From positions 24,738,001 through 24,802,000 of the forward strand of contig OZ287748.1 of the NCBI GenBank assembly GCA_965649765.1: a stretch of DNA of 64,000 nucleotides, in the 5' to 3' direction. The translations under genes were made by a program, and so were the position numbers. The DNA comes from Bispira polyomma. Taxonomy: Eukaryota. Shown piece after piece: positions 12,481 through 62,584 of this stretch (position 1 is its first letter; every line of letters starts with the position of its first letter). Below the pieces are notes generated by a model that did no database searches, was not told the origin of the DNA, and saw only the letters and a list, made by a program, of their open reading frames with translations.

Positions 12481-13329
12481 GTAGTTCAAATCTTACTAGA
12501 ACATTCAGCTGCTGTGGACTTGGTCAACAAAGAAAATAATACTGCTTTATATCTGGCGGTTGAACATTGCCACACTGAAGTGGCCGAGGAGCTCATACGT
12601 GGCGGTGCTTCATGTAATCATCAGAATGACAGTGGCGTGTCTCCGCTCTATATGGCCATTCAGGCCAAAAATAACATCATCGCCAAAATGCTGCTAGAAA
12701 GTGGTGCCAATGTCAATATTCAGGACAAGTTAGGATGGTCACCGTTACACAAAGCGACACATATGAATGATGAAGAGCTGGTGTTTATGCTCTTGGATAA
12801 CGAGGCCAGTACTAATATACAGAATACCAAAGGAGTGACAAGTTTGCATCTCGCCATCACCAACAGCAACAACATCTGTGCGCAACTTCTTCTGTTACAA
12901 GGAGCTGATTGTAACTTGAGAGACAACTATGGCATATCACCGTTTCATGCTGCGGTGAAGTCTTCCAGTCTACAGCTGGTCAATATGATGATACGGCAAG
13001 GAGCAAACCTCGACTCGTATAATAACGACAAGTCCACTGCATTGTACGTGGCCTGCCACAAGTCAGACACTGATATGATCGCCACGTTACTATGTGCGGG
13101 CGCTGCAGTGAACGAAGGTCGAGAAGATGGTTGGAGCCCTCTACATGTGGCTGTGCAAAACGATGTGGAAGCGGCGATTGGGATGTTGATATACGCCAAT
13201 GCAGATCCCAATAAGATGGATAAACTCGGCCTCACACCTCTAGCCATGGCTGCTAGGAAGAAGTCAATGAATATCTTAAAGAGGATAGTAGTCAGTCCAA
13301 AGTGTGCTACACCTGAAGCTGTCTTTAGG
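12481..13329 (+). CDS. Ankyrin-repeat protein, exon 2 (8 ANK repeats)
   Basis: cttcag acceptor, 33-aa periodic G-x-(T/S)-(P/A)-L-(H/Y)-x-A motifs, donor AGG|gtgagt, 849 nt in frame. Confidence 0.95.
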
Positions 13330-14144
13330 GTGAGTTAATCAACTACACAGTAACACAGATTGTCATAACCTTGTCCAACATCATAAACTTGTCCAATTTT
13401 TTTGGCCTTTTAAAACATTTTTTAAACTTTAGCCACTATAAAAGATCCTTAAAAGACAGATTTACTTCATTTCAAACAATATTTACTGAACAATTTCAAG
13501 GATTTTAAATTTTGACTGAAATTTAATTGGCCAATAAATAGGATTTAAACCCACATTGAGAGGCCAGTGATTATAAAGCAAACGGTTTTAAGTTCTAACC
13601 ACTGGGCCACTATGGTCTCTTTCTGTAACTAAAACCCAGTATATGTTGAGTTTCTGTTAACTAGAAACAGGTATCAATTAGATATACCGCTGAACCCCAT
13701 TAAGTTGAACCCCAAGGGACCCCAAAATGTTTCTACTTAAGCAGGATTTCCACAAGCAGGGTCAATTTTAGAAGAAAACTTCTTTGTGAAAAGACCATTT
13801 GTTTGCCTCCAAATGACAGTAAAATTGAGTCAACAGAGTTCTGGTTAAAGTCAAGTAGAAACTAAAACCAATTCCTTAAAACAAGGTGAAGCTGGTAAAC
13901 TCTCTACAGTTATCACATTCTCAAATCTTACAAGCTAGTCTGGTGCATGTAATTGACAAAAACATGTATTTTAATAATACAAATGAAATCTACACTTTAC
14001 TTTGAAAAATACTTACACACAAATATTTTTGTATACATGTTACTCTTCAGTTAGTTAAATAATAAGTTTCGTCTTTTTTTATAAGCATATTTTATGTAAC
14101 TCTAAGAAAAGAGGAGAAATGTTGTCTCTATGCAAGGAATGTTG

Positions 14145-16393: not shown

Positions 16394-16829
16394 TATGCAA
16401 GGAAATGTTGACTTTACTATATAGAAGTAGTTATATTTTCTATGTTTTCTATGTTATATGAATTTTAAAAAAATAAAATAGAGTTTAAAAAAGCACCAGT
16501 CGGATGTTTGTAACACTGTTTTTACGAAAGTTAAAATTTTGTACATTTACTTGCCAATTTCATCAAATAAGCAGAGACTTTGTTGCCCATTTGATGAAAT
16601 GTGCAAGTGAATTGGCCATTTCACGAAATGGGCAGTTTTCTTGCCCATTTCACGAAATTGGCAATTTCATCGATTGGGTGTAACATTTTTGTGTAATTGT
16701 AGTTGTAAACTTTGGTGAAAGCCTGAATCGTTCTGCTGCATTATGTAATTTGTATTTAAAAGCCCTGGAACTGTGAAGGATTACCAGTATATTCTTGGTA
16801 AAGACAAATTCTCCTTAATAATGTCCCAG

Positions 16830-16905
16830 GGCCCGTATTCACGAAGGGACTTCGCCAAGTCTTTTAAGGCTGAGACTTGGCTAAATCCCTTTGTCAATGT
16901 GGGCC
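16830..16905. mobile_element. Tiny palindromic Harbinger-like MITE
   Basis: cag|ggcccgtattcacgaaggga...tccctttgtcaatgtgggcc|cag with 3-bp CAG TSD. Related ends at ~12072-12295, 25504-25745, ~44677, ~45260-45465 and ~48568-48668. Confidence 0.65.
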
Positions 16906-17111
16906 CAGATTGCATAGTTAGGAGGTCCAATTTGGTATTTGAAATTCTACCAGGAGAAAAATTCTACTGGCAAAAACTCCACTTGGACTTTTTACCAAGT
17001 TAAACTTTTAAACTTTATTGAACTGATATACTTCAGTTCCAGTCAAATGAGTTTATTTTCAAATATTTGTGTTGTACTCATTCTCAATGGGTTTTCCCAT
17101 GTCTTTTGTAG

Positions 17112-17219
17112 GTATCAAAGCTAGGGGATCCAGCTTTGTTAGAGAAGCTTCGGAGTTGTGGGATTAGTCTGATTAAAGAAGACAGTGATGGTACTACGAG
17201 TGTCCATATGGCTGCTGCA
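17112..17219 (+). CDS. Ankyrin-repeat protein, exon 3 (VSKLGDPALLEKL...TSVHMAAA)
   Basis: ttgtag acceptor, gtaagt donor, 108 nt, continues the ANK pattern in frame. Confidence 0.88.
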
Positions 17220-17250
17220 GTAAGTAATCCTGTTAGTACATTAGAATCTA

Positions 17251-17597
17251 TATTCTAACATGACATATCTGTGTCTGTGATTCTGATTGGCCGACAGCCT
17301 CGGTAAAAATATCCGTATACTTATGAATGGAAATAGAATAATGTCACCTGAAACATACTGAATGCCCAATTAATATAGTTCTTTTAATAACGCAATTTTG
17401 CAGTAAAGCAGCTTGAATCCGAAATAATAATTTAATTTGTCATGTTAGAATAGGAATAATCTATGACAAAGCTCAGTATACGGTAATTTGTGCCACTCTT
17501 GGAGCGTAGAAACACTCAGGCTTCGCCTTCGTCTTACTATGCTTCCAATCTTCGTAAAAATTACCGTATACCGAGCTTTGTCATGGGTTATTCCTAT
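17251..17597. repeat. Double inverted-repeat (foldback) element, probably a non-autonomous transposon
   Basis: IR1: tattctaacatgaca (17251) / tgtcatgttagaata (17438). IR2: ~40 bp, 17450-17489 / 17558-17597, around a gcttcgcc loop. Confidence 0.7.
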
Positions 17598-17749
17598 ATT
17601 ATCCGAACATATTAGGAGGGCCCAATATTGTTTAGATAAGAAAAGCTTTATAAAATAGAAGAGGCTTTTATTTCTAAAACTGGGGAGAGTTGAAATGTCT
17701 TCATCAAATCGAATATATTCTGATAACAGCTGTTTGGATGATAGAGGTA

Positions 17750-17918
17750 CAGTATAACCTCTATTATCTGACTATTTAATTTTATGTACTCAATTTCATT
17801 CTCGCAAACTTTTTTTTGCTATTGTTTTATACTAAAATACCCTTTCTATTTTATGGAGCTTTTATTATCCAAACAAATTCTCACTCTCTCAATATTGTCA
17901 GATAATAGAGTTCTACTG
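17750..17918. mobile_element. pogo/Tc1-mariner-type MITE
   Basis: ta|cagtataacctctattatctgac ... gtcagataatagagttctactg|ta, TA TSD. Confidence 0.75.
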
Positions 17919-18577
17919 TACTACTGTATGTTAGAGTTTGTTACTGTGAGTGTTCGACAACACAACAAAACATCTGGGAGACAAATAACCTACACTGAAA
18001 TGAAGTATTGATTGAGGCCCCACAGTGCTCACTCTTTAAAGATAGGGAACAGTTGGTGAGATTCCAAAATAATTTCACCCTAGCCGATTTAAGATACAAC
18101 TGTTATCTATTGATTATACAATCTTATAGACTTATACATGTACATTGTATTTACAGCAGAAACTGAATTATCTAATCTCACTTTGATGAGCTCATTTCTT
18201 CTCTTCCAAATGTATGTTTTTCCTCTGTGATGCACTAAAATCTGGCTTTTCTTTGATGGATGTCATTTATTCTTAACAACACTATTAAAGTATATTTGTG
18301 GTTAAAGTATATTTATTGTTATAATTTTATTTGTGTGCTGACCAAGATTTTGTTCAGACTGTTAAAAGGTTTGTAAGGTGGAAGAGTCACTTTAGTATAA
18401 AATATTAAATAAACATAAATTTTGAGTGAAAACGAATAGGTACATTTGAATACTCGGATAATAGAAGATCACATAACAGAGGTTTTACTGTATTACAAGC
18501 AAATTCCTACTAGCCTCAAATTTTATTAAAGGTAATTTTTCAGGTTTTACAATATCTGTTTTTGTTCACATTTTCAG

Positions 18578-18741
18578 TCAGGCTCAGTGGAGGCTTTGGA
18601 TGCACTGCTAGCCAGCAATTGTAAAGTGAACCTTCAGGACAAGGCAGGCAATACCCCACTTCACCTTGCCTGCGCTCAAGGTCACACCCGTATTGTACAT
18701 GCCCTTCTCAACATGGACGCTCAGATCAATATACCCAACAG
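18578..18741 (+). CDS. Ankyrin-repeat protein, exon 4 (SGSVEALDALL...GNTPLHLACAQGH...)
   Basis: tttcag acceptor, AG|gtgact donor (phase 2), canonical GNTPLHLA motif. Confidence 0.92.
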
Positions 18742-19337
18742 GTGACTAAAGCACTTCCAATACTTTATGTCTTCTTGTGTTTTCTTTTCCAGCATCTATA
18801 GTTTGCAAAACATTTTCCCCAGTCTGTAGTTTGCAAAACAATTTTCAGGGTCTGTTCTGTATTTTCTTGTTTTCTATTTGTTCCTAATCTTCGCTTTACC
18901 AGACCTCCTTTAATCATGATGCCCTTAATACATGTTTAGATTACATCACGTCAACAATATACTTTTCTATTTGTTTTGTAACCTCCTCTAAATATCCTGT
19001 GATCATGCCCTCCCAAAATGTCAAGATAATAGAAGTTCAGATAATACATGTTTTGCAGTATTTTATACTTTATTATGTTTTGTAATTTCGCTTTCATTAA
19101 ACATCGTTTGACCATGCCCTGGCAGCATGTTTAGGAAATAGAAGTAATACACGAACAATATTTTATTCCTTTCCATTTGTTTTGTAACCTCCCGAGGTGT
19201 TTAGATAATAGAAATTTTACAATATTTTATTATTTTCGGTGGTTTTTCCCCTTTACTTCCTCTTTACCAAATCTCCTTTAACCGTTCCCTCCTATGTGAT
19301 GGTCAGATAATCAATGTTCCTTGTTTTCTTACTATAG

Positions 19338-19485
19338 GGGTGGAGAGCGCTGTTTACACCTGGCAGCCAGTCAAGGACATCTGGAGGTCATCAATGTGCT
19401 CCTCTCCAAGGCTGTTGTACTTAATGTCAAGGACAGTAGTGGTGTCACACCTCTACTGGCAGCCATTAGGGCCAGGCATATACAG
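19338..19485 (+). CDS. Ankyrin-repeat protein, exon 5
   Basis: tatag acceptor, phase 2 matches exon 4, CLHLAASQGH and GVTPLLAAI motifs, donor CAG|gtaagc. Confidence 0.92.
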
Positions 19486-20097
19486 GTAAGCATGTCGTTT
19501 TTGTGGATGGGCATGTCATCATTGAAAGATGTTATATTTATGCTGATTCCAATGCTACAAAAATGTCCCAATTAATGTGATGAAAGCTATGTAAAATCTG
19601 ATTGAGTATTTGAGCTCTTCACTGCAAGCTATATTAAAAGGAATAGTGATACTCGCTTAAAACCAAATCTTATATTTGAGATTGTATTTAATTGTATATA
19701 TATTTTTATTGATGCGAGGCATCTTCCATTGTGCAACAGCCAAATCAAATCAACCAATCATGTGTTCCGCAACATATCCTGGGTTGTCGTCAGTAGGTAA
19801 AAGCATGTTTACATCTTGCTCAAGGATGATGTTAGCCCACCAATGAACCTTGCAACCATCAGACCAACTCCCTAACCATTGGGCCATGGGAAACCACAAG
19901 ATTATGCATGGGTTCAAGTATACGACTTGTTTTATGTGGCAGGTGCTGGTTAAAATTTGATTGTGAAAAACAATATTAGCTGATTACCTGTATATGCAAC
20001 CTTTGTACTCTTAGCTAAAGGCAAACTCGAGGAAACAAATAGTTTAAAACTTGCCGCAAACAATCTAGTTTTTAATTCCTTGTCTAATTTCATTATA

Positions 20098-20271
20098 CAG
20101 TTAAACCCTCTTTAAGTAGAACCTCATGGGACCAGAATAATCATTTCTACTTAAGCACGATTTTCATTTAAGAGGGTATATTTAGGAAAAAAGACCATAC
20201 TGGGACCACCAACTTACTTTAACATAAAGGGAAATCTACTCAATAGAGTTCTACTTAAAGGGTTTTGACTG
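20098..20271. mobile_element. pogo/Tc1-mariner-type MITE
   Basis: ta|cagttaaaccctctttaagtagaac ... gttctacttaaagggttttgactg|ta. Degenerate relatives at ~13686-13860 and ~42450-42552. Confidence 0.78.
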
Positions 20272-20305
20272 TATCAATTAACAATACACTGATACACACC
20301 ACTCC

Positions 20306-21292
20306 GGGGCCGCGGTGGCCTAGTGGTTAGCAAGCATTGCGCTTCACAATCACTGGTCTCTCACCTCTGAATTTGGCTGGCATGGGTTCGACTCCCGTCG
20401 ATGCCTATATGGGAAAGGTGGTAGTTCCTTATTGTGGGGTTGAAAAAAATCATGATTTTTTTTATCTAAATCAATTTTTTTGATTTATTTGATTTTTTTT
20501 ATGCAATTATGTGTTGTAGTGAAAAACCTACTATTTTTTTATGTTTATTATGAATATTGTTCGAATACATAAACAACAACAAATAACTTTATACAAGCAG
20601 CTGATAATAATGATAGTTTAAAATGAACTTAAAAATAGCTTAATGACCATTTTAATTATTTCCTATAATACATTATATACTCCACTAGTAACACTAATCA
20701 TTCTTTTAGACAGGATTAATATGCTTGGCCATTGAGCTGGGGTGTTTTTATAAAAGCTATTTGATCACCTAGTTTATTGTATAAAAAATTCTGGCTGAGG
20801 TTGTGCTCTGGTAGAATTAAATGACAAGAAGGGTGACATCCACCACAAAAAGGGTTCTGTAATAATTGTTCAAGGGCATTACTATTGAGTCTAACACAAA
20901 GAGTTGATAGTTTATAAAGGGATTACTAATGAGTCAAACATAAACAGATGATACTTTATGTAGGGATTACCACTATTAACTGAAATGTCAATTATTAAGA
21001 AAGGAAATGTTTTTCTTAGAAAATTAAAATCACTGAAAAAAAAAAGATGTTTTTAAAAAAATCAAAAAAAATCAAAAGTCCTTGATTTATTTGATTTTTT
21101 TTGAGTAAAAAAAATCAATGATTTAAATCAATTGATTTAAATCAAACAACCCTGATTGTGAGCCGCTGGTTTCAGTGCAGAACCTTGAATAACTGTATGC
21201 AGTGTTTCCTCCAGCGTTTCCAACTACCCGTCCAAATATAACCTAAACAGGTACTAGAGTGGACGTTAAATATCCCAATTAAAAACAAAAAG
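20306..21292 (+). mobile_element. tRNA-derived SINE (same family as 9578), split by a nested MITE
   Basis: The 5' half (20306-20436) and 3' half (21155-21292) are collinear with the 9578 copy. 13-bp TSD tacacaccactcc at 20293-20305 / 21293-21305. Confidence 0.92.
20437..21154. mobile_element. hAT-like MITE nested in the SINE
   Basis: Ends gggttgaaaaaaatc... and ...aaatcaaacaaccctg, with many gattt/aaatc subterminal motifs. Target attgtg(gg/ag) duplicated. Confidence 0.85.
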
Positions 21293-21345
21293 TACACACC
21301 ACTCCTGTGGTTTTACTCTAAATGTATTCCTTGTGCTTATTATAG

Positions 21346-21444
21346 ACTGCTGATAAGTTGCTCAAGTGTGGGGCTAAGGTGAATATTTCTACCTATGGGG
21401 ATGTTTACCCAGTACACGCAGCTGCTGAGGGAGGGCTGACACAG
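21346..21444 (+). CDS. Ankyrin-repeat protein, exon 6
   Basis: 99-nt (one ANK repeat) phase 0-0 exon TADKLLKCGAKVN...YPVHAAAEGG, flanked by tatag / gtgaga. Confidence 0.9.
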
Positions 21445-21996
21445 GTGAGACTGGGGTTATACACAAACAATTGATGTTCGCTGAGTGAGTTTGTTTTTAC
21501 AAGGACTCTAGCTTTTAAAATAGATTTTGTGAAAATATTGCTCAATGCAGTGTTCAAAATTTACCAAATATTTTATAAAGCCACATCTCTAAATAATATT
21601 AGTACACATTTAAGTTTTTCTTTTATCTATACAAACATTCTCATACCGCCTAGTAGTGGGTAAATTGTTTAATAATATCACCAATATTTATTGTTTGGGC
21701 TTTTGCGTGCCGATATCGATGTGTAATACAAACACATTGATGTCATAATTGATAGCTATTAATAATATTTTAAAGTTAATACCTTATAAATAATAAACCA
21801 TTTTAGATCCGTGTTACTTGTAAACATATTTATCGGGGGGAATATTTTTCATTTGAAGGTAAGTTCCAGTTCTCATGCTATACCTAATGCTATCGGCCGA
21901 TATTAAAGTAATTTTGCCTTTGATATTAATCTAAACCAACATTGAACCATTACCGCCCAGTGAATATTTTATGTTCGCCTTGATTTGTTTTGGCAG

Positions 21997-22121
21997 TTGT
22001 TCCCTTTACTGGTGTCACGAGGTGCAGATGTGAATAAGAAAGGCACCTTTGATAACACCTGTTTGCACCTGTCAGCCAAAGAAGGCCACCTGGATTCTGT
22101 TCTGGAACTTGTTCTCAATTT
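21997..22121 (+). CDS. Ankyrin-repeat protein, exon 7
   Basis: ggcag acceptor, LLVSRGADVN...NTCLHLSAKEGH, gtaagt donor (phase 2). Confidence 0.9.
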
Positions 22122-22711
22122 GTAAGTATAAACCTCAAGTTCATCAGTATCAATCTATTTACCCTAAACTCCCTTGTAATAGCCCATGGGCTTTAAGGTT
22201 AAACTTAAGGAAATGTAGGGGATGGGCTCTAAGAGAATGTGTTTTTTTTTTCATTCAAAATTTTAACAGTATTTATAGAAAACTAGGGGTGGGCTCTTAT
22301 GAAAGCATGGGCTATTACGAGGGAGTTTGGGGCTAATTAGTTTGTAAACCTAGAACTTGTTCTAAATTCATGGATGAAATTGGGACAGTGAAAATTTATG
22401 TTTAATTTACAGGGTTCATCAAAGATAATATTATAACTTTTCAAGGGAAATTAAAAAAAAAAAAAAATTTTGTGGACATAAATAATTCCCTAATGATATG
22501 TTTTCATCCTTTTCTACACATTTCTAACTGATCATTAAAGTTAAAACAGCACAACTCCTGAATTTCACCCATTTGTACACTCAGTGTTGCCATTCTTGCT
22601 GATCGAACAGCCCCTCCTGGTTATGTGAACCATAATGTGATCATCCGAACGTAATCGGTGTCTCCATGTGGGTTTGTATGATCAGTATTCTGCTGTATTT
22701 TATATGTGTAG

Positions 22712-22820
22712 TGGAGCAGAAGTCAATGCAGAGAATGTCCTGGGGAAGAAAGCTCTTCATTTTGCCGCAGATGAGGGTCACATGGGTATTGTACAGGCCT
22801 TGCTGGAGGCAGGAACTAAG
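22712..22820 (+). CDS. Ankyrin-repeat protein, exon 8
   Basis: tgtag acceptor, phase matches, GAEVNAENVLGKKALHFAADEGH, donor AAG|gtaagt. Confidence 0.9.
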
Positions 22821-23350
22821 GTAAGTTAACATCCATCTCATTGCAATAGCCTAGTGGGTAAATCGTTGACATCAAGGGGAAACAAACAAAAACTGCCCAG
22901 CATTCAAAACAAAACAATATGCCTATACTGAACAGGAAGTGAAAACCGCAAAATTATTTACATGTTAATTTAAGTTAAAGTGCCTTTAAAGTTGGCAAAC
23001 AGTCGACACTCTAAAAATGTGATTTTATTTTCCTTCAGTTACTTGTAATAGCAAAATGCAGCAGAATGTGGAAGTAGCCTATGGGGTGTGTTTTAGTGAC
23101 TCCCGCTATCTCTAACCTATTACTGGAAAAATTTCCTACAGTTCCTGTCAATAGTTTATTTTTGGGGTTTAAAGGGTTATGCACTGCTCAAAGGTAAAAT
23201 ATGTTTAATTCACAACATCCATATGTACATGGTACACATCAGCCTCTGTGTCCAAGAGCCCAAATATTAAATATTGTTGATATCGCTATATATTTGTCTA
23301 CCTCCTGATGATATACACAACCGCTATATTAAAAACCCCTCATTTTGCAG

Positions 23351-24580
23351 ATAAATTTGTTAGGCGATGACGAAAGTCCATTGTACGAGCTGGCTCGCCA
23401 CAAAGATATCTGGGACATATTAAAACTGTGGACAAGCGGCTCTCCCAATGGCGCTAAAGCCTACACCAGCCAAAAACTGCAGACTTCTGGCTCCAATAGA
23501 GTGTCCAGTCACAGCTTCAATGTACCCGACCAGGGCATTGTGTCTCTGATGTGGACTCTTGGCGCCGGGGCAGGACATAGCTCCAGAAGCAGAACCCAGT
23601 GTGAGTCTCAGTTAAGTCGCTCAAATACCTATGGTGGGGCTCGCCCTAGGACATCAGGATCTAGGTCAGGTCAAATGATTCCACCACAACCTACCGCACC
23701 ACCTGCCATCATTCCAGCCAGCAGCGAGCCCCCTCCGTATTCCAGAGTGGCCAGGTCTAGGAGCTTGGGGCGTAGTCCCAATAGATCTGGATCCAGTGAA
23801 AGCTCACAAACGTCTGCTCCGCAGCCACAGAGCTCTCACAGACCTAGCCGGTTACTTCCCGAGTCGCCATCATTCCTTGGTTCCCTTCTCCACGCCGGTC
23901 CCGCCCAGCCACGCAGCCATTCTCCTAGCCCCCAGAGACACGGCGTAGAGAGTATGCAAAATGAGAGACGTGGCTCTGCGGCATCGGTTAGTCCCAACCG
24001 AGGACACCAGACGGCCAGAGCCACCCTCAGTGCCCCAGGGTCTGTATCTCCGCACCAGAGCCCCTCCCCAGTATTGGACGCGAACCTAATGTGTATCCAG
24101 AACTCTTTCGGTTACAGAACCAGTCTGTCCGGTCGTCCACCGCCACAGGTTGCCATGGTAACTAGCCAAGCGAGGACGTCCAGTAATCCTAGTTCTCCAC
24201 CCGCTGCCAGTCAGGTGGTGAATTCATCGCGTCAGTCGCCAGAGCAACAACAACAACAATCCTGCTCCACCAATCAGAACAGCATACAGATGGAACTTCC
24301 AGGAACACCAGAAATCCGCCGTAGCAGCCACCCGGGCGTGTTGACCTTGTACTTTGACTGTAACAACAGTAGCCCCGTGGCGATGAGTCCTACCAGTAGA
24401 AGTGCCAACCCTTCGCCGGGATACCTCAACTGCACCCCAGTCACCTCCCCAAGACAGCCAAACCTCAGCCCATCGCGCATTCCTGCTCAGCACAGTAGTC
24501 AGTCACCACCCTCAATAACTGGGTCAAGGTCAAGGGCACAAGCGGAGGCATTTACTTTTGGCAAGGAAACAACTTGCTAG
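23351..24580 (+). CDS. Ankyrin-repeat protein, terminal exon 9: last ANK half-repeat plus ~380-aa Ser/Pro/Gln-rich disordered tail
   Basis: ttgcag acceptor, 1230-nt GC-rich open frame ending ...GKETTC-TAG. Joined CDS is 3492 nt with consistent phases. Confidence 0.9.
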   Translation: MNLLGDDESPLYELARHKDIWDILKLWTSGSPNGAKAYTSQKLQTSGSNRVSSHSFNVPDQGIVSLMWTLGAGAGHSSRSRTQCESQLSRSNTYGGARPRTSGSRSGQMIPPQPTAPPAIIPASSEPPPYSRVARSRSLGRSPNRSGSSESSQTSAPQPQSSHRPSRLLPESPSFLGSLLHAGPAQPRSHSPSPQRHGVESMQNERRGSAASVSPNRGHQTARATLSAPGSVSPHQSPSPVLDANLMCIQNSFGYRTSLSGRPPPQVAMVTSQARTSSNPSSPPAASQVVNSSRQSPEQQQQQSCSTNQNSIQMELPGTPEIRRSSHPGVLTLYFDCNNSSPVAMSPTSRSANPSPGYLNCTPVTSPRQPNLSPSRIPAQHSSQSPPSITGSRSRAQAEAFTFGKETTC

Positions 24581-36744: not shown

Positions 36745-37495
36745 CTCCTTTCCTACTACTCTCCTTGGTAATAGTACTGTTCCTGCTGACAGTGCGAAGA
36801 ACCTAGGAGTAACTTTTGACTTCTTCAAAAAACATGTCTTGAATATCTGTCATTCCTGCTTCTGCAACATCCGTGATTTTCACAGGATTTGACGGCATTT
36901 AACCCAAGTAAATGCCATTACAGTGGCAAATGCCCTGGTATCAAATCGACTAGATTACTGTAAATCACTACTATATGGAATTGGACAGGGCCAAATAAAC
37001 AAGCTACAGAAAATTCAAAACAACCTGTGCAGAATAGTAAGCCATGCTGGCCCTTGCACTCACACAACTCCCCTGCTTAAACAATTAAATCGACTACCTA
37101 TTGAGTTTTGTATTAAATTTAAGGTAATTGTCCTCATTTTTAAGACAGTCCATGTACAACAACCTGGAATTATCATCTATGCTGTCTCTCAGCAATCTCA
37201 GCAGAGGCAATCGTCTCTCCACCTCTGGTTTCCTACCCAAAAAATCAGCTGGTTAAAAATCATTCTTAGTTGCAGCACCTGCACAAGCATCACAGGTTTC
37301 AGAAAAAAAAGCTCAAAACACATCTCTATCAGCTCGCTTTCCCACCGTATCATTCATCTGATGGTCACGACTGAATCTCTGATCACGAACCTTTTCCCGT
37401 CTACCGGACTATGCTCCTGCACACTTACCAGGAAATGCGCCACAGAGGATGCCTGGTCATCGATTGTGGTGGTATAGTAGTCAAAACATTAACAT
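36745..37495 (+). mobile_element. Decayed L2-clade LINE 3' fragment
   Basis: Translates SAKNLGVTFD, ANALVSNRLDYCKSLL, LQKIQNNLCRIV with stops and frameshifts. Confidence 0.85.
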
Positions 37496-41085: not shown

Positions 41086-41818
41086 ATAGTTCATATGTAC
41101 ATAGCTGCATCATACTAGTACAGCACACCAGTGCAGGTCACCAGTATGTCAGATACAAACTCCTTCTATTTTTCTTGTTTTAGTGTTAAACAATAACTTC
41201 TTATACCAAAACAAAGTTTAATAACTATTTCACCTTTGTTCTCAGTAATAACCCTTTTGACCCCTACGTTTTTGGAAGACATTTGTCAATCCTTGTACGT
41301 ATGTCTGTCGACAAGCATTCGACACCCTAAAAGTATTCTTATATTTTCCTTTAGTTCCTTGCAATAGAAAATTGTACAGCAGAATCCCCCATAAAATATA
41401 TATAATATATCTGAGGCCGTTATTGAAAGCTTGTGTGTGTCTCAGTGACTCCAGCCATCTGTAACTCATTACTACCTTCGGTTCCCAGTGTTAGTTTTCT
41501 CTTGGGATTGAAAGTGTTAAATTTTGATACCACACAAGCGTATATTTGTCCTGCAGTAAACATCTAAGTTTGTTAAATGTTGTATAAGCAGTCCATCAAA
41601 AACCGCTGACCATCCCATTTTTTGGCCGTGTACACTGGTATATTCACTGTACAACAAAGAAATATATTATAAGGAGCCATTGCATGACATATTAGTGATC
41701 TGTATTTGTATTCTCTACTGGTATGATGCATGCACATACCTCTGAACAGTTTTTATTTAAATAATTTTCTACAGTCCACTGCTTAGGGTACTTCATCCTC
41801 AACAGGTTGGATGTCATC

Positions 41819-42191
41819 CTACCCCTCTAATGCATTTGGCAGAGGCCTGTTCAAGTGTACAAACACACAGGTCTTAGTCTTGCAGTCTGCATGCCAGGTA
41901 CCAGTCTTTAATGTGATTGGGATACAGGCTGTCCTCGTACAAATAGCCACACCCCAACCATTAGGACTACAGTTGCAGATGTTGCAGTCGTTGGCCTTGC
42001 AGAAGGGTTTCCCAGGGTACACTTTGCAATGAGCCACGTCATCGATGACAGCGTGCTCCGGACAGGGAGACACAAACTCACACTCAAAAGTGAATTCGTT
42101 GAACACCCAGCAACCTTTGGGAATGGGGTCTCCACATTTACTGCTTGTACATCTGATTTTTTCTTTGGAACAGCGACACTCATTGCATTTC
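41819..42191 (-). CDS. Secreted Cys-rich protein, terminal exon 6: Cys repeat plus pacifastin-like domain
   Basis: ttcag acceptor, phase 2. CKVYPGKPFCKANDCNICNCSPNGWGVAICTRTAC fits the pacifastin pattern C-x9-12-CNxCxC-x2-3-G-x3-6-CT-x3-C, apart from an extra Cys and a slightly longer first spacer. TAG at 41819; AATAAA at 41757-41752. Confidence 0.85.
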
Positions 42192-43629
42192 CTGAATGAA
42201 TACATATAGGCATTTATTATACCCAGTTAGGTCATAGTAACCATCTGTGGTGGTTTTTTAAGTACTAAACCATGACAGATCGAACTCAAACAGATCAATT
42301 AAATTACAGAAAAATTTAACTTTTTATGTCCATGTATTAAATATATGTTGATCGTTATTTTAATCAGTTCCACCGTTGAAATGTAAATTAAAACCTGTGT
42401 GCCAGTACGGGTACTTCAGTTGAAACGCAATGGAAAAGGAGAAGTAACTCTACTTAAGCAGGATTTTGCCTTAACCATTTTATTGGAAAAATCTGGTGTC
42501 AACCTAAAAATAAATTAACTTGACAGAGTTTCACTGAAAGGGCTTTGACAGTCTAATTATATGGATAATATTAAATACAACTTTCCCATCTTAAGTTTCC
42601 ATTTGTTTGTGGAGTGAGTGCACAACATTCGAAATTTAAATTGATAAGAAAATCAAATGTATTGGCTTTGTTGTTGTGTACATTTAAAATGTCGCTGATA
42701 CTTAAACAAAATCGATTTAACTAAAGGTTATAAATCAGCTATATATAGATATTTGATTTTTGTACAAAGACCTTTGCAGTTTCAGAATAGCTTAAAACAA
42801 TAGATTTTGCACTTTCAAAATGCGAAGCAATAAATAATAGAAAACAAAGATGGCATTTCCATAAAAGTCTGTAAATAGATTTTCCTGAAACTCTATTTGA
42901 AGATAGTTTGTTGTTCTCATTTTTAACCAAAACAATGACTCACAATAATATGCTTTTTTATGTGCAAATGTTTTTGTATATTTAAAAACCATTAATGCAA
43001 ATGAAAGTTCTTTTACATTACTGAAATGATATCAAAACTTTTTTAGTGTTAGTTCCAAAAACAAATGTTTATGGAACGTACAGTGTGGGTGAATGTGAGT
43101 GTTTTGGTCTTTTACGTACATACTGTAACCATTTTTTTAAACGCTTCTAAAATTCATTGAACGGGGCACAGCCATGTTGGATTTTTTGAACGTATCAATA
43201 TATAACACTAAGCTTAACACTAAACTCTAATGCTGTCATACAAACTAGTTTTAATATGGTCATTCCCTCTCCAGAGAATCGTAGAATCTAACCCATTTAT
43301 TGATAACATACAGCTTTTTTATTCAGGGAAACTACATTTGAGTTTTGACATAATTTGATTTAGTTCTAAAATGTTACCATTTCTGTTTTTGTCCTGTTGT
43401 GTACAATACTGAATCCACAGATCAGAACCCATGACTAATGAGTACAATTCAAACTACAATGGTAAAGTAAAAACTCTTTTAAGTCTACCCTGTTAAGTGG
43501 AAATCCTGCTTAAGTAGAGGGAATAGATCACGGATAAATAGTTCTGTCAGTAGCTACAAAAATAGTTCACAGTAAGTTGAAAAATATCTTATTATTTGCT
43601 TTAAAATATACTGTTGTCAGTCTTTCTAA

Positions 43630-43752
43630 TAGAAATAAAGTACACGAGCTTGTACTTTATTGGCGAATAAAGGACAACCTTCTGCCATAAAGTCCACCAT
43701 AAGTCAGTCCATTCTTCGCCAATAAAGTACTCGCCCTTGAACTTTATTTCTA
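43630..43752. repeat. Palindromic (hairpin) element
   Basis: tagaaataaagtac...gtactttattggcgaa / ttcgccaataaagtac...aactttatttcta. Confidence 0.7.
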
Positions 43753-43967
43753 CAAGAGTCTGTAGCATGGATCAAACACTTTAAACATTCTTTATATTAT
43801 GCTGGTTCTGGTCAGTTTAAAGCACTTTCATTGTTTCTAAGCTAACTCTCCCTAGTTAACCCGACTTGAGTTTTCACCACCTGTATACCAGATAATGGTA
43901 GAATAAAAGTACAATACAGTACAATTATAACAATGCAATCCAAAATAAAGCTTAAAACACAACCTAC

Positions 43968-44150
43968 TTGCATGTAAATTCTCCATCACAGCAAGACGTA
44001 GTCTCAGGACATGGGTGGACAAACTCACATCGCTGCAATTTCTCGTTAAACATGTAACAGTGGTCGGTGTAGATGTTGCTGATGTCTATTTCGTTACGAC
44101 AAACGGTGATTAGAGGCAATGGACTTGGACAGGGACTGACATAGTAACAC
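43968..44150 (-). CDS. Secreted Cys-rich protein, exon 5 (absent from the ORF track)
   Basis: gacag / gtaggt, 183 nt, phase 2-2. CYYVSPCP...HCYMFNEKLQRCEFVHPCPETTSCCDGEFTC repeats motifs of the neighbouring exons. Confidence 0.85.
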
Positions 44151-44918
44151 CTGTCAGATCAAATATTTTGGCCGGTAAATTTTGTTTAAATAATTTATCA
44201 GACAGTACATATGTACACATGCCAAAAATAGCCGCAACTTAAATATATATTGATTACAAAAGATAATAAAAATAAGTATTTAGAACAAGAACTTATATCT
44301 AAAACATATATATTTAATTCATCTGATTCTTTCTTCACTAAAATTGATCAATTTGGAAGATGTATCTTTTCAGACATCTATAAATTTACCTGTACAAGAT
44401 ATAAATTTAACAAAATCTCAAACCAGTCTAGGATATTGTATTTGAAAAGTTCATGTGTAAATGTCTTAAACCCCGTTTTGACAATAACTGAGAGGTTTGT
44501 GTTAGTTATTGTTAAATACAGATGTAGTAATATATAGCTAGAAGCTCACTGTTTCCTTTTTAAAAATATGTTTTGGAGAAAATGCTTATACATGTAACAT
44601 GTACAGTATATAATGTTTACAGTAACCATAGTAAATCTTAAGTGCTCATAGCTCACTATTGTGTACCACAGTACCTGGGCCCAAATTTCACAAAGATCAT
44701 CCAACTCAACTCCACTGTAGGCTCTGGGAAAGTTCTTGTACATGGGAATAACCTATACTTGTAACCATTAATTTTAACCGAGATTTCAGTGCTTACTTAA
44801 TGTAACTCTTTAAGTCAAAGATATTGAGACCGCAGCTGTGTGTCTCAGTCAAACTTAGTATTTTTCGATAATGCATCCACTGTATTGTAATTCCTCAAAT
44901 GAAATACAAAGAACCCAC

Positions 44919-45233
44919 CTGTCAATCACACCATCATACTTTCTCCTGACCAGACAGCCAGACCGGGAGGGATCCGGGCATCTATCTGCACCACTGCAGA
45001 ACCTCTTCCCATAAGCACATTCACATTTCTTGCACATCTTGCAGCTGCGGGTTCCAGGGGTCGCACAGGCACAACTCTCGTCCCCGATCTCAGGACAAGG
45101 CCACACGTAGCGACATTCACCTTTGACATTGGTCCAACAACCTTTATCCCGATATCTCCAGATCTGCTCACCACATTTGTTAGGGTCACCCTGACAGAGT
45201 TCATTATTCTTCTCACATCTACATTTCACACAC
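44919..45233 (-). CDS. Secreted Cys-rich protein, exon 4
   Basis: ttgcag / gtgggt, 315 nt, phase 2-2. CVKCRC...GCW...CRYVWPCP...CKMCKKCEC...GCL. Confidence 0.88.
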
Positions 45234-45677
45234 CTGCAAACATAGGACATTGTACAGTAGGGCACCATATTCTGGAAATAATCTCAAGTTCAAACTCAAG
45301 ACTCAACTTAATTGAAGGCTGTATGGAAGTCCATTAATGTAAAAATAACCTTTACTTGCATATGCATTCAGATTTCACTCATCTTCACTCCACCCAGAGC
45401 TCGGGAGACCTGAAATGTACATTTGATTCTGAGTTGAGCTTGAAAGTTTAGGGGAATATGGCTACAGAAGCTCTATTATCTGACTTTCTGTTATCAATTA
45501 ATTATACAGAACGATTCTAGAATTCACTGGATACAAAACGGACATGTTGTATTTTGGTGATTCAAAATTCTTTTTTTGGGGGAGAAATACTTTAGTAAAC
45601 AATAAACTGTTTCCTGGGGTAAAAGATAAAATATTTGGCCCATTAAATATCAAGGTTGATGAATAATAATAGAATTA

Positions 45678-45969
45678 GCCTACACTTCTATTTAACATGT
45701 TTTTCTCGGCCTATGTTTTTTCGGCTATTACACAATTCTACCAAGTGCTTCCTTTCAGCATATTTGCAACAGATAAGATCAGGGGTTGGCCGACATCTGT
45801 TGGGTTAACAGATTTTGTCTCTCAGGGAGGGAAAAAATCGGGAGGACTGTCAGATTTTTGAATAAAATATTAACAAAAAAAAAAAAAATTATTTTATTTT
45901 ATTTTATTTTACATAGAACATATCCAATGAAAGGAATCGCGTTAGAATGTTCTAAAAGGAAGTGTAGGC
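45678..45969. mobile_element. Internally deleted relative of the 37588 Harbinger MITE
   Basis: tta|gcctacacttc ... ggaagtgtaggc|tta. Shares ccaagtgcttcctttcag and aaaaaatcgggaggactgtc with the 37588 copy. Confidence 0.82.
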
Positions 45970-46121
45970 TTAGGGATGGGTCCCTCATATTTCTTTAAGA
46001 TTTAGTGATTCGGCAGTTTTTCTCTAAACAGTGTTTATACAAACACTAGAATCCAACATGACTGTGCTCTGTCCAGTAAATTCTAGAATCGTTCCACAAA
46101 TGAAACCCGAAGTGGTCGAAC

Positions 46122-46392
46122 CTGTTACAGTAAAAAGTGGGCCAGACAAAAGGTCCCGTCATTGGATTGCAGGTATTGGCTGAGAAGGTGTCGAGACAGG
46201 GATAGAAAAAGATACACATCTCTCTACTTGGACACATCCTCCAGCAGCCACTGACCTCCATCTTAATCACACTAGGCTTTACATACATATTAGGACAACC
46301 TTCTTTACTACAACCTCTAGGCTTGCCCTTCTTACAGGCACATTCTCGACATTCCTGACATCCCTCCGTCGCACATTTGTCTATGCAAATAC
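46122..46392 (-). CDS. Secreted Cys-rich protein, exon 3
   Basis: ttcctcag acceptor, phase 1. ICIDKCATEGCQECRECAC...GCWRMCPSREMCIFFYPC. The donor AG|gttcga is weak but restores CNRCVKCRC with exon 4. Confidence 0.8.
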
Positions 46393-47860: not shown

Positions 47861-48023
47861 GCCAGAGGTATATTAAAAGTGTGTCAGTCCCAGGAGCACT
47901 GTCTCCTAGGTATTTAGATGGAACACTTCTCTTCACTCATAGGTTGCTTCTTGGTGGTACAATAAAAATTCAGATAAAAAAATGTGGGATTAGCCCACTG
48001 AATGATTGATAGGAGAAACTCTA

Positions 48024-48331
48024 CTCCTGTATTAGGATATTCTTTTAGTGCAGCCTTTGTTTTGATAAGGCAGTATGCTAAAACAATAAAAATCTTTTAT
48101 ATAAAATACTGTATTATTCCCAGCTTACATTCTCTCTCCGTAATACACTTTCCCATATGCCAGGTGGGTTTAATCTCCAGTATTAGGATATTCTTATAGT
48201 GCAGCCTTTGTTTTGATAAGGCAGTAATGCAATAACACAATACAAATGTTATATATAAAATACTGTATAATTCCCAGCTTACATTCTCTCTGTGCGATAC
48301 ACTTTCCCATATGCCAGATAGGTTTAGTCTC
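48024..48331. repeat. ~152-bp tandem duplication covering the 3' end and donor site of the TIL exon
   Basis: ctcc(t/a)gtattaggatattc...cccagcttacattctctc...actttcccatatgccag occurs twice. Confidence 0.9.
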
Positions 48332-48511
48332 AGGACACTGGCACCTCGGTACACAATGCAAGGGCTTCTTATTGGAGGGATTCTGATCCTTGGCAGGTCG
48401 GGTACAGGTGCGGGTGTAGGGCAAGCCACACTTCGTAAAAATCTGACCCCCAGGACAATAGCAGCTCTCTGGCTTGGCAACACACTTTACCCTAAAGTTG
48501 GAGTCACAGCT
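48283..48511 (-). CDS. Secreted Cys-rich protein, exon 2 (TIL, trypsin-inhibitor-like domain)
   Basis: cttcag / gtaagc, 229 nt, phase 0-1. CPGGQIFTKCGLPYTRTC...HCVPRCQCPETKPIWHMGKCIAQREC. Confidence 0.88.
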
Positions 48512-49294: not shown

Positions 49295-49492
49295 CCTCCA
49301 GGCGGCGTGAGTTCGACTCCCGTCGATCATTTGTGGAAAAGGTGGTAGTTCCTTACTGCAGGCTGCTGGTTTCAGTGCAGAACCTTGATTAACTGTATAC
49401 AATGTTTCCTCCAGCGTTTCCAACTACCAGTCCCAATATAATCTAAACAGGTACTAGAGTGGACGTTAAATATCCCAATTCAAATTCAAATT
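49295..49492 (+). mobile_element. 5'-truncated copy of the 9578 SINE family
   Basis: gttcgactcccgtcgat...tgtggaaaaggtggtagttccttact...gagtggacgttaaatatcccaattcaaatt. Confidence 0.9.
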
Positions 49493-50182
49493 CTCAGTTT
49501 CTCAGTTGCTTTCTCATACCCATGGTAGCCTAGTGGTGGCCTTAAAATCACTGGCCTCTTACCAATGTGGGTTAGAATCCTATTTACTCTTAGGTGTGGG
49601 AACATTTGTCAGTTAAGAGTGCTTCAACACTGGTTTCCTCCACCTAGACTTAGCACTTTTGTGAGTACCGCCCTAGATGCGTAAGCATAAGCACACACAC
49701 ATGTTTAAGAACAGACAACAGACAATGCGGTGGACTTCTTCCCTTTTGTCATCTTATATTTCTCCCCAGTCTGCATCTGGAAGTCATCAGTTTACAATGC
49801 TTCAGTACTGGTTTCTTCCACCATTGAATCTGGCCATTGCCATATGATCTAAGCTGTTGAAAGCGAGGTAAAACCCAACTAAATTGTAAAATTTCAAAAT
49901 TTGAGTAAAAAGGGTATTTTAACTGTTAAATTATATCTTATATTGATTGGTAAATTGTGCCATAGCTTTAATGCTGCAACAGAGAAGGGATCAGATCCAA
50001 TCCGTTGACTGGTGGTTCTGGATTCTTTTTCCTCTAGCATGCGGGAAGACGGCAATGAGGCAATATACGGGGCTGACAACAGTTGACAGTTGACTGTCTA
50101 TGTAGTGACATTGCCACTGGATGGGTTCCATTTTATATACCAAGAGTATAAATAATAAATAAATACCAATAATATTGATTAC

Positions 50183-50359
50183 CTGGTATTCATTAGCTGG
50201 GCAGTAGCATCCACATTTGGGAAGAGGAAACAAGGGATAATCTCCACAGATTTTGGGAGTGACAGGAGGACATCTGTGCTCCAGTGGTTTCTGACACTTG
50301 GAACTAACTTGTAACACTACACAACCCAAAAAAACTCCAACTACTCCGACAAACTGCAT
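50183..50359 (-). CDS. Secreted Cys-rich protein, exon 1 (signal peptide plus start of a TIL-like domain)
   Basis: aagATG start, hydrophobic MQFVGVVGVFLGCVVLQVSS, then C-rich KCQKPLEHRC...CGCYCPANEYQ, donor CAG|gtaatc. The six exons join to 1548 nt in frame. Confidence 0.85.
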
Positions 50360-60374: not shown

Positions 60375-61240
60375 GTAAGTGAACTGTATCTAGGCGGATC
60401 CAAGATTTTGTAAAGGGAAATTGGTTGGAATATATTTCAATTTTTTGGGGGTTTTGTTGATTTAACCAGGCTGGGTTATATCACAAGAGCCAAATAGTGA
60501 TAAAAGAAACCATTGCTGAAGCACTGCAAACCACCGACCTATGGTAAGTACCTGACAAACCTTCCTACAGAAAGGAAGAAACAGGATTCAAATCCACATT
60601 GGTGAGAGGCCAGTGATGGCAAAGCAGGTGCATTTATGGTCCACAAGTACAATGTAACCCCCTGGATCTGCCTATACTGTATGCCGACCTCCAGACAACA
60701 ATTAATACATTGCCCAAATGCTGTAGTGGTCTTTTGAGAAGTTCGTGTTCAACAGCCAGCTTACTCCTCATCCATGTAACACCTTAGCAGTTTCACCTAA
60801 AAAAAAATCGTCCACCTCTCACTTTGTGTGAAACAAGAGCATGTTCTGTATCATTTAAAGTCCTAGCACTTTCTGAAGGGAGTAATATTCCTGCCATTAT
60901 CTGTACTGAAATTTTCCATATGAAGGCACAAGTAGGATTAGAACCCACATTGGTGAGAGACCAGTGAGCTTTGAATCACTAGGCTACTATTTTGTTTGAT
61001 TTTGATTAGGATGTGCAACACAGAGAATTTAAAAGATAGCCTGCAATGATAATTTTCTTTATTTTTTTTTGATATTATTCTATGTATTCTTTTAAAACTC
61101 ATATATAGAGTGCAATAAATAAGTAAACAGGAATCTAATGGAGTACAATGCTATTTAAAATCCACGAATAATTTTTCTTCACTCATTCCACAAATACCTG
61201 CTATAAATGTCAATAAAATATGCTATCCTAAGCTATCAAT

Positions 61241-62054
61241 TTGGGTAATACATATATAAGCAGTGTTAAGCCAATTTATTTACCACAAAAAAAGGTTATT
61301 AGAATAATGCATAATGTTGGCTACAAAGAACATACCAATGGTTTATTTTATAATAGTCGTATAATTAAATTTTTTGATCTAGTAAAATTTAAAACAGCTT
61401 GTACTTTGTTCAAAGCAAAAAATAATTTGTTACCTAATAATATTCAAGTGTTATTTAATTTCGAGTCCACAGTTGACTACAACTTGAGGTGTAAAAATCA
61501 AATTAAAAATAAATATTGTAGAACAACCAAGAAAGCAATATGTGTTTCGATAATAGGTATCAAAATTTGGAATAATCTGGATAATGTTGTTATTTCTTCA
61601 AAGAATCTATGTCAATTTAAAAAGTTGTTAAAAAAAGATATTTTTGATATGTATAAAGTTCAATTGGATTAATCAGTATAAAAGTATATAGTAAATCAAT
61701 CATTTAATTTTTTAAAAGGGTAATAAAAAATCTGTGGTTTCTTTTATGAAAGTGTAAAATGTAAATATGTAATATATGTTAGAAGTTCTAGTTTGTGTAA
61801 TTTTGTGTTTGGTAAATAAGGGGTTAATTTTTATAAGTTTTTTCAACTTCTTTTAACCCCTTTTCAACTGTAAAATTAATTTAGTCAGGTTAACAAAATT
61901 AATTTAGTCAATTTAACAAAATTAATTTAGTCAAGTTACTAATATTCACTTAGTAACTTTTCTTCACTGTAAAATTAACTTGTATTTATGTTAACACACA
62001 CTATGCATGTACATTATGTATTACTGTTGAAATAAACCATCTATCTATCCGTCT
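61241..62054 (+). mobile_element. 5'-truncated non-LTR retrotransposon 3' end (CR1/L2 group, Crack-like)
   Basis: GNTY...QKKVIRIMHNVGYKEHTNGLF...GIKIWNNL...FKKLLK is a typical post-RT C-terminus. AT-rich 3' UTR, AATAAA, (ctat)n tail. Confidence 0.8.
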
Positions 62055-62086: not shown

Positions 62087-62584
62087 GAAGAAAAAGATCT
62101 ACAGTGGGCTGATGCTTTTATTCTTGTGTATAGTGTCTGTGACAGAGCCTCCTTTTACACAGCCTTAAGGCAAATAAAACATATCCAGGACTGCAGATCT
62201 CCGGAATATGTCCCAATCCTTCTCCTTGGAAACAAGTCTGACCTAGAACATTACCAAGCAGTCACGTGCCGTGAAGTAGAAAACATCACCATCCAACATG
62301 GCTGCCAGTTTGCTCACGTGTCAGCAGCTGAACGTCACTGTTACATCACAGAAGCAATCAATGGTTTACTAAGAGAGGCAAAGAGTTATGTGCAGCAGAG
62401 ACAACTGACCAGGAAACACAGGAGGAAAAACTCACAGACTTTGAGAACTGTTTCCAAAGCTCTGGCCTTTGTATTTGGAATGAACTCAAACTCTAGAACG
62501 AACTCAACAGATGAGCCACTTACCATCCCAACTACTAATGAAAGTTGTTCAGAACAAAGTAAAACGTGTTCTAATTTAGGTTGA
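62087..62584 (+). CDS. Ras-like GTPase, terminal exon 4
   Basis: ctttag acceptor. WADAFILVYSV, G4 GNKSDL, G5 VSAAE, polybasic RKHRRK, no CAAX. Joined CDS is 702 nt. Confidence 0.92.
   Translation, partial: EEKDLQWADAFILVYSVCDRASFYTALRQIKHIQDCRSPEYVPILLLGNKSDLEHYQAVTCREVENITIQHGCQFAHVSAAERHCYITEAINGLLREAKSYVQQRQLTRKHRRKNSQTLRTVSKALAFVFGMNSNSRTNSTDEPLTIPTTNESCSEQSKTCSNLG

Follow-up and report, generated by a model that had tools for sequence, protein, structure and literature searches.

The window analysed here is a stretch of 64,000 nucleotides from Bispira polyomma, and it holds a gene of six minus-strand exons running from 50359 to 41819. The spliced coding sequence of 1548 nt has no internal stop and gives a product of 515 residues with 75 Cys, arranged in the order signal peptide, TIL-like domain, TIL domain, repeats 1 to 3 (R1 to R3), a half copy, R4 and R5; the mature protein has an even total of 74 Cys. 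The features are as follows, with the evidence in brackets.

50183..50359, minus strand: exon 1, with the ATG and the signal peptide, in which a degenerate TIL-like domain also begins; donor in phase 0 (sequence)
48283..48511, minus strand: exon 2, which completes the degenerate TIL-like domain and carries a TIL domain (Pfam TIL PF01826, splice junction)
46122..46392, minus strand: exon 3, with repeat 1 (46387-46196) followed by the opening Cys residues of repeat 2 (homologs P0002, P0003)
44919..45233, minus strand: exon 4, with the body of repeat 2 (ending at 45095) and, from 45073, the greater part of repeat 3
44148..44924, no strand: intron 4, 768 nt long; a direct repeat of 9 bp spans its two splice sites, at 44148-44156 and 44916-44924
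43968..44150, minus strand: exon 5, with the last part of repeat 3, a half copy with four Cys (44101-44009) and the beginning of repeat 4
41819..42191, minus strand: exon 6, with the body of repeat 4 (ending at 42062), a terminal pacifastin-like unit, a degenerate hairpin tail and the TAG stop
41924..42028, minus strand: pacifastin-like domain, the putative first half of a fifth repeat copy (Pfam PF05375, pattern fit)
41822..41923, minus strand: tail, a probable degenerate hairpin half in which Cys9 remains but Cys8 and Cys10 are lost (hairpin HMM against shuffles)
41752..41757, minus strand: candidate AATAAA polyadenylation signal, about 60 nt past the stop (sequence)

GT-AG introns, each in phase 2, lie at 46121-45234, 44918-44151 and 43967-42192, and we infer the join of exon 1 to exon 2 from phase alone. 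The signal peptide is hydrophobic and about 21 residues long, with its cleavage site placed by eye; in a 19-residue Kyte-Doolittle window the maximum of 2.0 falls at residue 1, and values beyond residue 30 do not exceed 0.83. Exon 1 as such has no Pfam match. The splice between exons 4 and 5 is confirmed by the homologs, since six of their ORFs (P0001, P0002, P0003, P0004, P0007 and P0010) read straight across the junction; intron 4 is missing in 6/6 homolog ORFs that span its site, and terminal inverted repeats were looked for at its ends and not found. P0001 is 86% identical to exon 4 over the exon, and exon 6 is matched by P0005, P0011, P0008 and P0012. A small exon near 45410-45357 was considered and rejected, the homologs showing no missing segment (x8, x12-13 spacing).

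The repeat unit can be written as C1 x5-13 C2 xx C3 xx C4 x C5 x6-7 C6 x4-7 C7 x7-16 C8[W/Y/F/L] x7-13 C9 x5 C10. A full unit has 10 Cys in two parts, and half copies have exactly 4. Four full copies and one half copy were all located on the minus strand where the initial annotation had placed them, the motifs given for copies 2 and 4 appearing only once the exons are spliced; its coordinates hold for the repeats, but exons 1 and 2, with the signal peptide and TIL domains, and the terminal pacifastin-like copy had been missed. As a test against chance, the unspliced six-frame translation of the window was compared with 100 shuffles. In it the hairpin-end motif Cx[FY][VFI]xPC occurs six times (five within the gene, one elsewhere), where the shuffles average 0.08 and never exceed 2; CxxCxxCxC occurs twice against a mean of 0.16, and by itself is weaker evidence because the shuffle maximum equals the observed 2. 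The proposal of a two-part module is borne out by the Cys counts between hairpins: 8 of the 17 intervals hold a single Cys, and the other nine hold 7 (six intervals), 8 (two) or 10 (one). Full units with a counted interval accordingly read 7+3 Cys in 6/9 cases, 8+3 in two and 10+3 in one. The C7-C8 spacing overlaps between full units (7-11, n=9) and half units (9-15, n=8). All 17 uncut first halves carry an extra Cys, 15 at -3 and two at -5, while four others are cut by an intron; Gly stands four residues before C2 in 12/17. Some units have odd Cys counts. The repeats are 23-50% identical to each other and have no DNA similarity.

The array is common to 11 homolog fragments, about nine of them independent; P0010 and P0011 were excluded from counts as near-duplicates of P0001 and P0005, and P0009 (E 9e-4) was dropped as an unrelated tandem repeat. 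The array is old and fixed, since 22/24 homolog units find their best match in the window unit at the same position. A lone hairpin occurs at three array positions: after R3 (six proteins), replacing R2 (P0003) and after R4 (P0006). A word-based homolog search among longer proteins confirmed 0/1 candidate for exon 4 and 0/1675 for A3, which is weak evidence.

A TIL domain typically has ten Cys; the exon 2 domain scores 25.8-26.4 bits with PF01826 (cut-off 24.5), but has 8/10 Cys, one Cys pair being missing, and the codon of its last Cys spans the phase 1 junction. The TIL-like copy upstream has no TIL match in Pfam. At the other end, the terminal domain has an extra Cys five residues ahead of pacifastin C2 and a loop C-T-R-T-A-C with Arg at P1. 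PF05375 gives 27.2 bits on exon 6 and 24.5 on the domain alone, against a cut-off of 27.9, and the best PDB match is 1kj0 (E 0.005). Among the homolog terminal units only P0012 passes, with 38.4 bits (Pfam Pacifastin_I) for a unit that also carries CxxCxxCxC; P0005 (19.2), P0011 (19.3) and P0008 (14.6) fall below. P1 is Asp in P0005/P0011 and Glu in P0012, and the P0008 loop has 6 residues. On this sequence basis the terminal domain reads as a degenerate fifth repeat copy. Its tail, scored with the hairpin HMM, beats 500/500 Cys-fixed shuffles, and for three homolog tails 0, 7 and 13 of 500 shuffles reach the score. C8 and C10 are both absent in 4/4 tails, and this paired loss may be one ancestral event.

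Pacifastin domains inhibit serine proteases and have disulfides 1-4, 2-6 and 3-5; VWC, too, has a 3-5 disulfide. The VWC disulfides 1-4, 2-8, 6-9 and 7-10 are described in PMC6270503. The strict pacifastin pattern is C-x9-12-C-N-x-C-x-C-x2-3-G-x3-6-C-T-x3-C (PMC2689174), and non-arthropod pacifastin-like domains with C1-C2 loops of 13-20 residues are found in multidomain proteins beside TIL and VWC (PMC13388995). P0012 fits the strict pattern and P0005 and P0008 do not; the window terminal unit, which shares with pacifastin the C-N-x-C-x-C, the Gly, the C-T-x3-C and a C1-C2 loop of 13 residues, fits only with the 13-20 loop of PMC13388995. None of the internal cores R1-R4 fits either the strict or the extended pattern. 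R4 comes with Asn, Thr and the 4-residue loop and lacks the Gly of the C4-C5 loop.

The resemblance of the first half to a VWC/pacifastin core, noted in the initial annotation, holds in register: judging from the sequence, the first half is of the pacifastin/VWC-subdomain-1 type plus one Cys. With the ‘Ancestral’ non-arthropod pacifastin-like class (PF05375; PMC13388995) it shares the six-Cys register, and the protein shares with that class a multidomain setting with TIL. It differs from pacifastin in a seventh Cys in strand 1, in the hairpin after each unit, and in internal copies that mostly lack the Asn, Thr and 4-residue loop. The unit is like VWC (PF00093; CV2 VWC1, collagen IIA, CCN) in its ten Cys, two subdomains, CxxCxC core, C-x4-6-C, tandem arrays and similar subdomain-2 spacing, and unlike it in the extra CxxC, the absence of CCxxC and a second subdomain that can occur alone. 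VWC scores reach at best 17 bits (P0012; cut-off 27.6), with 10.6 for R4 of the window and none for R1-R3. SVWC / Vago proteins likewise derive from VWC in invertebrates and have a changed set of Cys; SVWC is a single domain of eight Cys (PMC13115929), unlike the ten-Cys tandem repeat here, and Pfam SVWC has no match in the protein, repeats or homologs. The homology of internal to terminal first halves depends largely on Cys: 10, 22, 65 and 115 of 500 Cys-fixed shuffles reach the score (12, 23, 47 and 251 in the reverse direction), and hhalign gives a probability of 35%.

A full-length match to an existing domain was looked for in Pfam and found neither for exons 3-5 nor for single repeats or homologs; sub-threshold VWC, FnI_RECK or pacifastin matches fall on first halves. 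The initial annotation of an undescribed module is partly supported; it overstates the novelty of the first half. On balance we favour the view that the gene belongs to a small animal family with secreted, soluble, disulfide-rich products. In this view its repeat falls within the VWC/pacifastin fold group, as a variant with ten Cys and two subdomains, and does not amount to a domain of a new type.

The protein may act outside the cell, in defence or in association with the matrix, with its TIL and terminal pacifastin-like loops as serine protease inhibitors, a proposal to which we give slightly less than even weight. The loops would inhibit in the canonical way, as tight-binding substrates; the Arg at P1 would suggest trypsin-like targets, and R1-R4 would serve as a protease-resistant spacer or binding rod. 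The inhibitor hallmarks are patchy across copies: Asn follows pacifastin C2 in 7/21 cores, the reactive loop has 4 residues in 10/21, and Thr stands at P2 in 4/21. The fold could also serve a different function, an option with a lesser though still appreciable chance, in which the repeats would, like VWC domains, have BMP/TGF-beta-type ligands or matrix partners as their binding targets, or would cross-link mucus, tube, shell or egg-coat matrix, and the inhibitor-like ends are vestigial. The reactive loops of most copies are indeed non-canonical, with P1 not conserved. Mucin/VWF-type matrix proteins typically have TIL next to VWC-like modules; in the 515-residue product, however, neither a VWD domain nor a Pro/Thr/Ser region nor a cystine knot is seen. 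Cross-links are conceivable because some units have odd Cys counts, but the mature total is even. In CV2, VWC subdomain 1 is the part that binds BMP (PMC6270503, PMC10326224), which favours a ligand function; the present family looks lineage-restricted, unlike BMP modulators, and inhibitor-type folds at both ends also speak against it.

The second half is predicted, with VWC subdomain-2-like spacing, to be a beta-hairpin without the CC. That it lacks the VWC CC ending and can stand alone had been claimed before, and both points are upheld, CCxxC being present in 0/10 proteins and lone hairpins occupying the three positions given above. Its spacing matches the subdomain-2 bonds of CV2 VWC1, Cys43-Cys61, Cys50-Cys64 and Cys26-Cys60 (PMC6270503). 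Under the VWC/pacifastin-variant reading, C1 and C3-C7 would lie in the register of pacifastin C1-C6, in a small sheet of three strands where C1 is bonded to C5 and C4 to C6, and a C8-C10 bond would staple a hairpin equivalent to VWC subdomain 2. Of the VWC CC doublet a single Cys would remain, and C2 would be a Cys newly arisen in strand 1, so that the cluster C2/C3/C7/C9 would be rewired, which would account for a hairpin standing alone with 4 Cys. The pairings C2-C3 with C7-C9 and C3-C7 with C2-C9 seem equally plausible, neither reaching an even chance, and C2-C7 with C3-C9 is a poor third.

It is rather improbable that the hairpin half is instead a mini-domain of two disulfides in its own right, with no kinship to VWC subdomain 2, that alternates with a pacifastin-like unit, a new module in the sense of the initial annotation. 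Its lone occurrences, the missing CC, its own W/Y and F-V-x-P signature and its standing as the best-predicted part of the AF2 model favour such a domain, and no Pfam, NCBIfam, PDB-sequence, Atlas or fold match covers it; the Cys total of ten, the place behind a subdomain-1-like unit and the spacing, by contrast, all agree with VWC, and missing matches are weak evidence for a Cys-rich piece of 30 residues and a model of mean pLDDT 57. Matches were sparse in general: NCBIfam gave 0/9, the PDB sequence search with profiles gave none for A3 and one chance match for A4, the best ESM Atlas value was 0.81 for exon 4 with no usable match for P0002, and a JGI metagenome scan gave 58 pattern matches and 0 confirmed. 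The AF2 model places strand pairs at every hairpin, with pLDDT 40-60 in first halves and 68-82 at residues 91-150; a single-sequence model of exon 6 reached only 37.7. Foldseek and VIA-align found no fold match, an uninformative result from so mediocre a model. In the openly readable literature the string ‘CxxCxxCxC’ was found in no paper, and titles and abstract openings gave no description of this repeat.

Exons 4 and 5 are symmetric (phase 2-2), as had been noted, and multiples of three (315 and 183 nt); losing both would leave a stop-free product with 48 mature Cys. Skipping or duplication of these exons is nevertheless a very improbable source of the repeats and their variation, and as an origin it is largely refuted, because the introns interrupt repeats and 6/6 homologs spanning the site lack intron 4. 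The exon borders lie inside R2, R3 and R4 (that of exon 4 cuts R3 within the hairpin), in repeat register one codon separates introns 3 and 5, a single ORF of P0002 runs from R1 through the half copy, loss of one exon would leave an odd 57 (exon 4) or 65 (exon 5) Cys, and the low identity of the repeats, with DNA similarity absent, also speaks against it. Least credible of all is a metallothionein- or zinc-finger-like role for CxxCxxCxC as a metal-binding cluster in a chelating protein, which dense CxxC motifs and a single sub-threshold ZZ zinc-domain match (P0006, E 0.045) could suggest, but which sits badly with the even mature Cys count, with the same motif in the pacifastin-passing P0012, and with the oxidising compartment that the signal peptide, TIL and pacifastin neighbours imply.

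Lineage-specific Cys-rich repeats are common in invertebrate secreted proteins, so the surprise of finding another is modest. A bolder and rather unlikely reading would have the four-Cys hairpin fold autonomously as an uncatalogued domain, with one chain catching the VWC-to-pacifastin transition: a rewired disulfide would uncouple the subdomains and make the hairpin mobile, and the last copy would shed its hairpin and gain a working inhibitor loop. The repeat family is uncatalogued and merits a profile of its own. Its natural series of full unit, lone hairpin and pacifastin-like end would serve to test the fold kinship of VWC and pacifastin together with disulfide rewiring, and a two-disulfide hairpin of about 30 residues would make a small, stable scaffold.

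All five cysteine motifs reported in the initial annotation were confirmed in place on the minus strand, and they fall within a six-exon GT-AG gene model.

Exons of the repeat gene
50359-50183, minus strand, exon 1
48511-48283, minus strand, exon 2
46392-46122, minus strand, exon 3
45233-44919, minus strand, exon 4
44150-43968, minus strand, exon 5
42191-41819, minus strand, exon 6

The five introns have phases 0, 1, 2, 2 and 2 in order, and the 1548-nt coding sequence, free of internal stops, translates to 515 residues, 75 of them Cys. The window DNA is of animal type, intron-rich and about 35% GC. Before splicing, it holds six occurrences of the hairpin-end motif against at most two across 100 shuffles; CxxCxxCxC occurs twice, equal to the shuffle maximum. 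We infer the joining of exons 1 and 2 to exon 3 because the splice phase fits and the last TIL Cys codon arises at the junction. Exon 3 carries at least four variant sites (46139-46292) in contigs from all three DNA runs; those listed, two synonymous changes and two replacements, are either alleles or paralogs. At 48020-48340, some 160 bp are duplicated in tandem, giving a second copy of the 3' end of exon 2 (the TIL end) with its donor, and extending the exon to the second donor would traverse stop codons. Intron 1 contains an interspersed repeat of very high copy number (49322-49915; summed contig depth about 1e6 versus 30-40 in unique bins), probably a SINE.

Hydrophobicity is confined to the N-terminus and no later stretch is hydrophobic, which makes a secreted, soluble protein probable; the signal peptide cleavage site was placed by eye. 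Exon 2 encodes a TIL domain with eight Cys that exceeds the Pfam cut-off, and exon 6 a pacifastin-like domain slightly below it (27.2 vs 27.9), while a Pfam scan of exons 3-5 returned zero matches even at E up to 10.

The cysteine repeat is real, uncatalogued and, it seems, lineage-restricted; in the literature searches no paper contained the motif string CxxCxxCxC, and none of those listed dealt with the repeat. Its division into two parts, as originally proposed, is borne out by half units at three array positions: behind R3, in place of R2 in the homolog fragment P0003, and behind R4 in P0006. A canonical unit has ten Cys (C1-C10) and a half unit four; across 17 intervals between successive hairpins, the Cys count was one in eight, seven in six, eight in two and ten in one. 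The further claim of an undescribed module goes too far for the first half, which lies in pacifastin register; the whole would act as a VWC/pacifastin-type disulfide module.

As described in PMC2689174, pacifastins follow C-x9-12-C-N-x-C-x-C-x2-3-G-x3-6-C-T-x3-C with bonds 1-4, 2-6 and 3-5, and it is with this register that C1 and C3-C7 of the repeat line up. Unlike pacifastin, all 17 uncut repeat cores have an additional Cys, with Gly at -4 from it in 12. P0012 bridges the two: its terminal unit has CxxCxxCxC, matches the strict pacifastin pattern and passes Pfam at 38.4 bits, and weak matches to VWC and FnI_RECK fall on its R4. Against the pacifastin link count the modest likeness beyond Cys between internal and terminal first halves (scores reached by 10-251 of 500 Cys-fixed shuffles; 35% in hhalign) and the patchy inhibitor hallmarks among cores (Asn in 7/21, the four-residue loop in 10/21, Thr in 4/21).

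VWC membership fails for the repeat, which lacks the CC doublet and scores under the Pfam cut-off; CCxxC is found in none of the ten repeat proteins. The bonds reported for CV2 VWC1 subdomain 2 in PMC6270503 (Cys43-Cys61, Cys50-Cys64, Cys26-Cys60) imply spacings of x6 and x9 plus the doublet, whereas the second half of the repeat has x7-16, x7-13 and a single Cys. In an AF2 model built from an alignment of 10 rows, every hairpin is predicted to form a strand pair; pLDDT averages 57, with 68-82 for residues 91-150 and 34-60 earlier, and fold searches with the model gave no matches. By score, the tails that follow the terminal unit are degenerate hairpins (matched by 0, 0, 7 and 13 of 500 shuffles with Cys held fixed), which makes the terminal pacifastin-like domain a fifth repeat copy. 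All four tails lack C8 and C10 and keep C9, a joint loss that suggests a C8-C10 bond like VWC 7-10 and may have been one single event.

A profile of the five copies, searched against 1.84 billion representatives, gave nine matches at E up to 0.001, eight of them true relatives; the repeat of P0009 is unrelated to the array, and it was excluded. P0010 and P0011 were added as cluster members and P0012 through a word search. These homologs are ENA or Logan gene calls whose ends run into introns, and word-based searches among longer proteins found no full-length annotated relative. Contigs of equal size (P0001 with P0011, P0010 with P0005) support one gene with exons 4-6, and those of P0002 and P0003, likewise equal, suggest tandem paralogs. 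A 319-nt contig from DNA runs with the same organism label aligns without gaps to 41870-42188 and differs from it at 53 letters, a pattern to be expected of a paralog. The array is old and fixed in order, since 22 of 24 homolog units match best the window unit at the same position (one does otherwise, one has no counterpart) and the window repeats are only 23-50% identical among themselves. P0004 has three extra Cys and, at about residues 110-155, a charged low-complexity insert ahead of R3, basic then acidic.

The phase 2-2 symmetry of exons 4 and 5, raised earlier as allowing in-frame skipping, is real but incidental, with borders running inside R2, R3 and R4; single skips would leave 57 or 65 mature Cys and the double skip 48. 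Intron 4 is missing from all six homolog ORFs spanning the site, including P0001 (86% identity). Copies of a 9-bp direct repeat overlie its two splice sites (44148-44924 with both copies), spaced by exactly the intron length, which suggests recent gain by insertion; the other four introns share just 1-5 bases. The gain is a lead only, as repeats of at least 5 bp also bound 26% of conserved Drosophila introns in the account of PMC3296678 and the ends of intron 4 showed no terminal inverted repeats. Intron 3 (45234-46121), read through by P0002, P0003 and P0004 and the starting point of P0001 and P0010, seems lineage-specific too.

Elsewhere in the window, on the plus strand, lie a multi-exon ankyrin-repeat gene (10693-24577) with a long Ser/Pro-rich ORF without Pfam match (23333-24577), a 726-residue reverse transcriptase ORF between ankyrin exons (14059-16236; RVT_1, E 1e-30), and a Ras-family GTPase exon (62087-62581; E 4e-14), which we take to be RERG-like. 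Fragments at 36893-37474 and 61232-61669, without Pfam matches, were judged by eye to be of non-LTR elements.

According to PMC13388995, pacifastin-like domains from outside the arthropods whose first loop has 13-20 residues often sit within multidomain extracellular proteins alongside TIL and VWC. The P1 rule given there (second position of the C5-C6 loop) yields Arg in the window terminal unit, pointing to putative trypsin-like targets, and Asp, Glu or no residue in the homologs. The main rival reading is that the repeats bind ligand or matrix in the VWC manner described in PMC10326224; the repeat differs from SVWC, a single domain of eight Cys in PMC13115929. We favour, by inference, a defence or matrix-associated protease-inhibitor protein, in which the repeats would serve as a rigid spacer.
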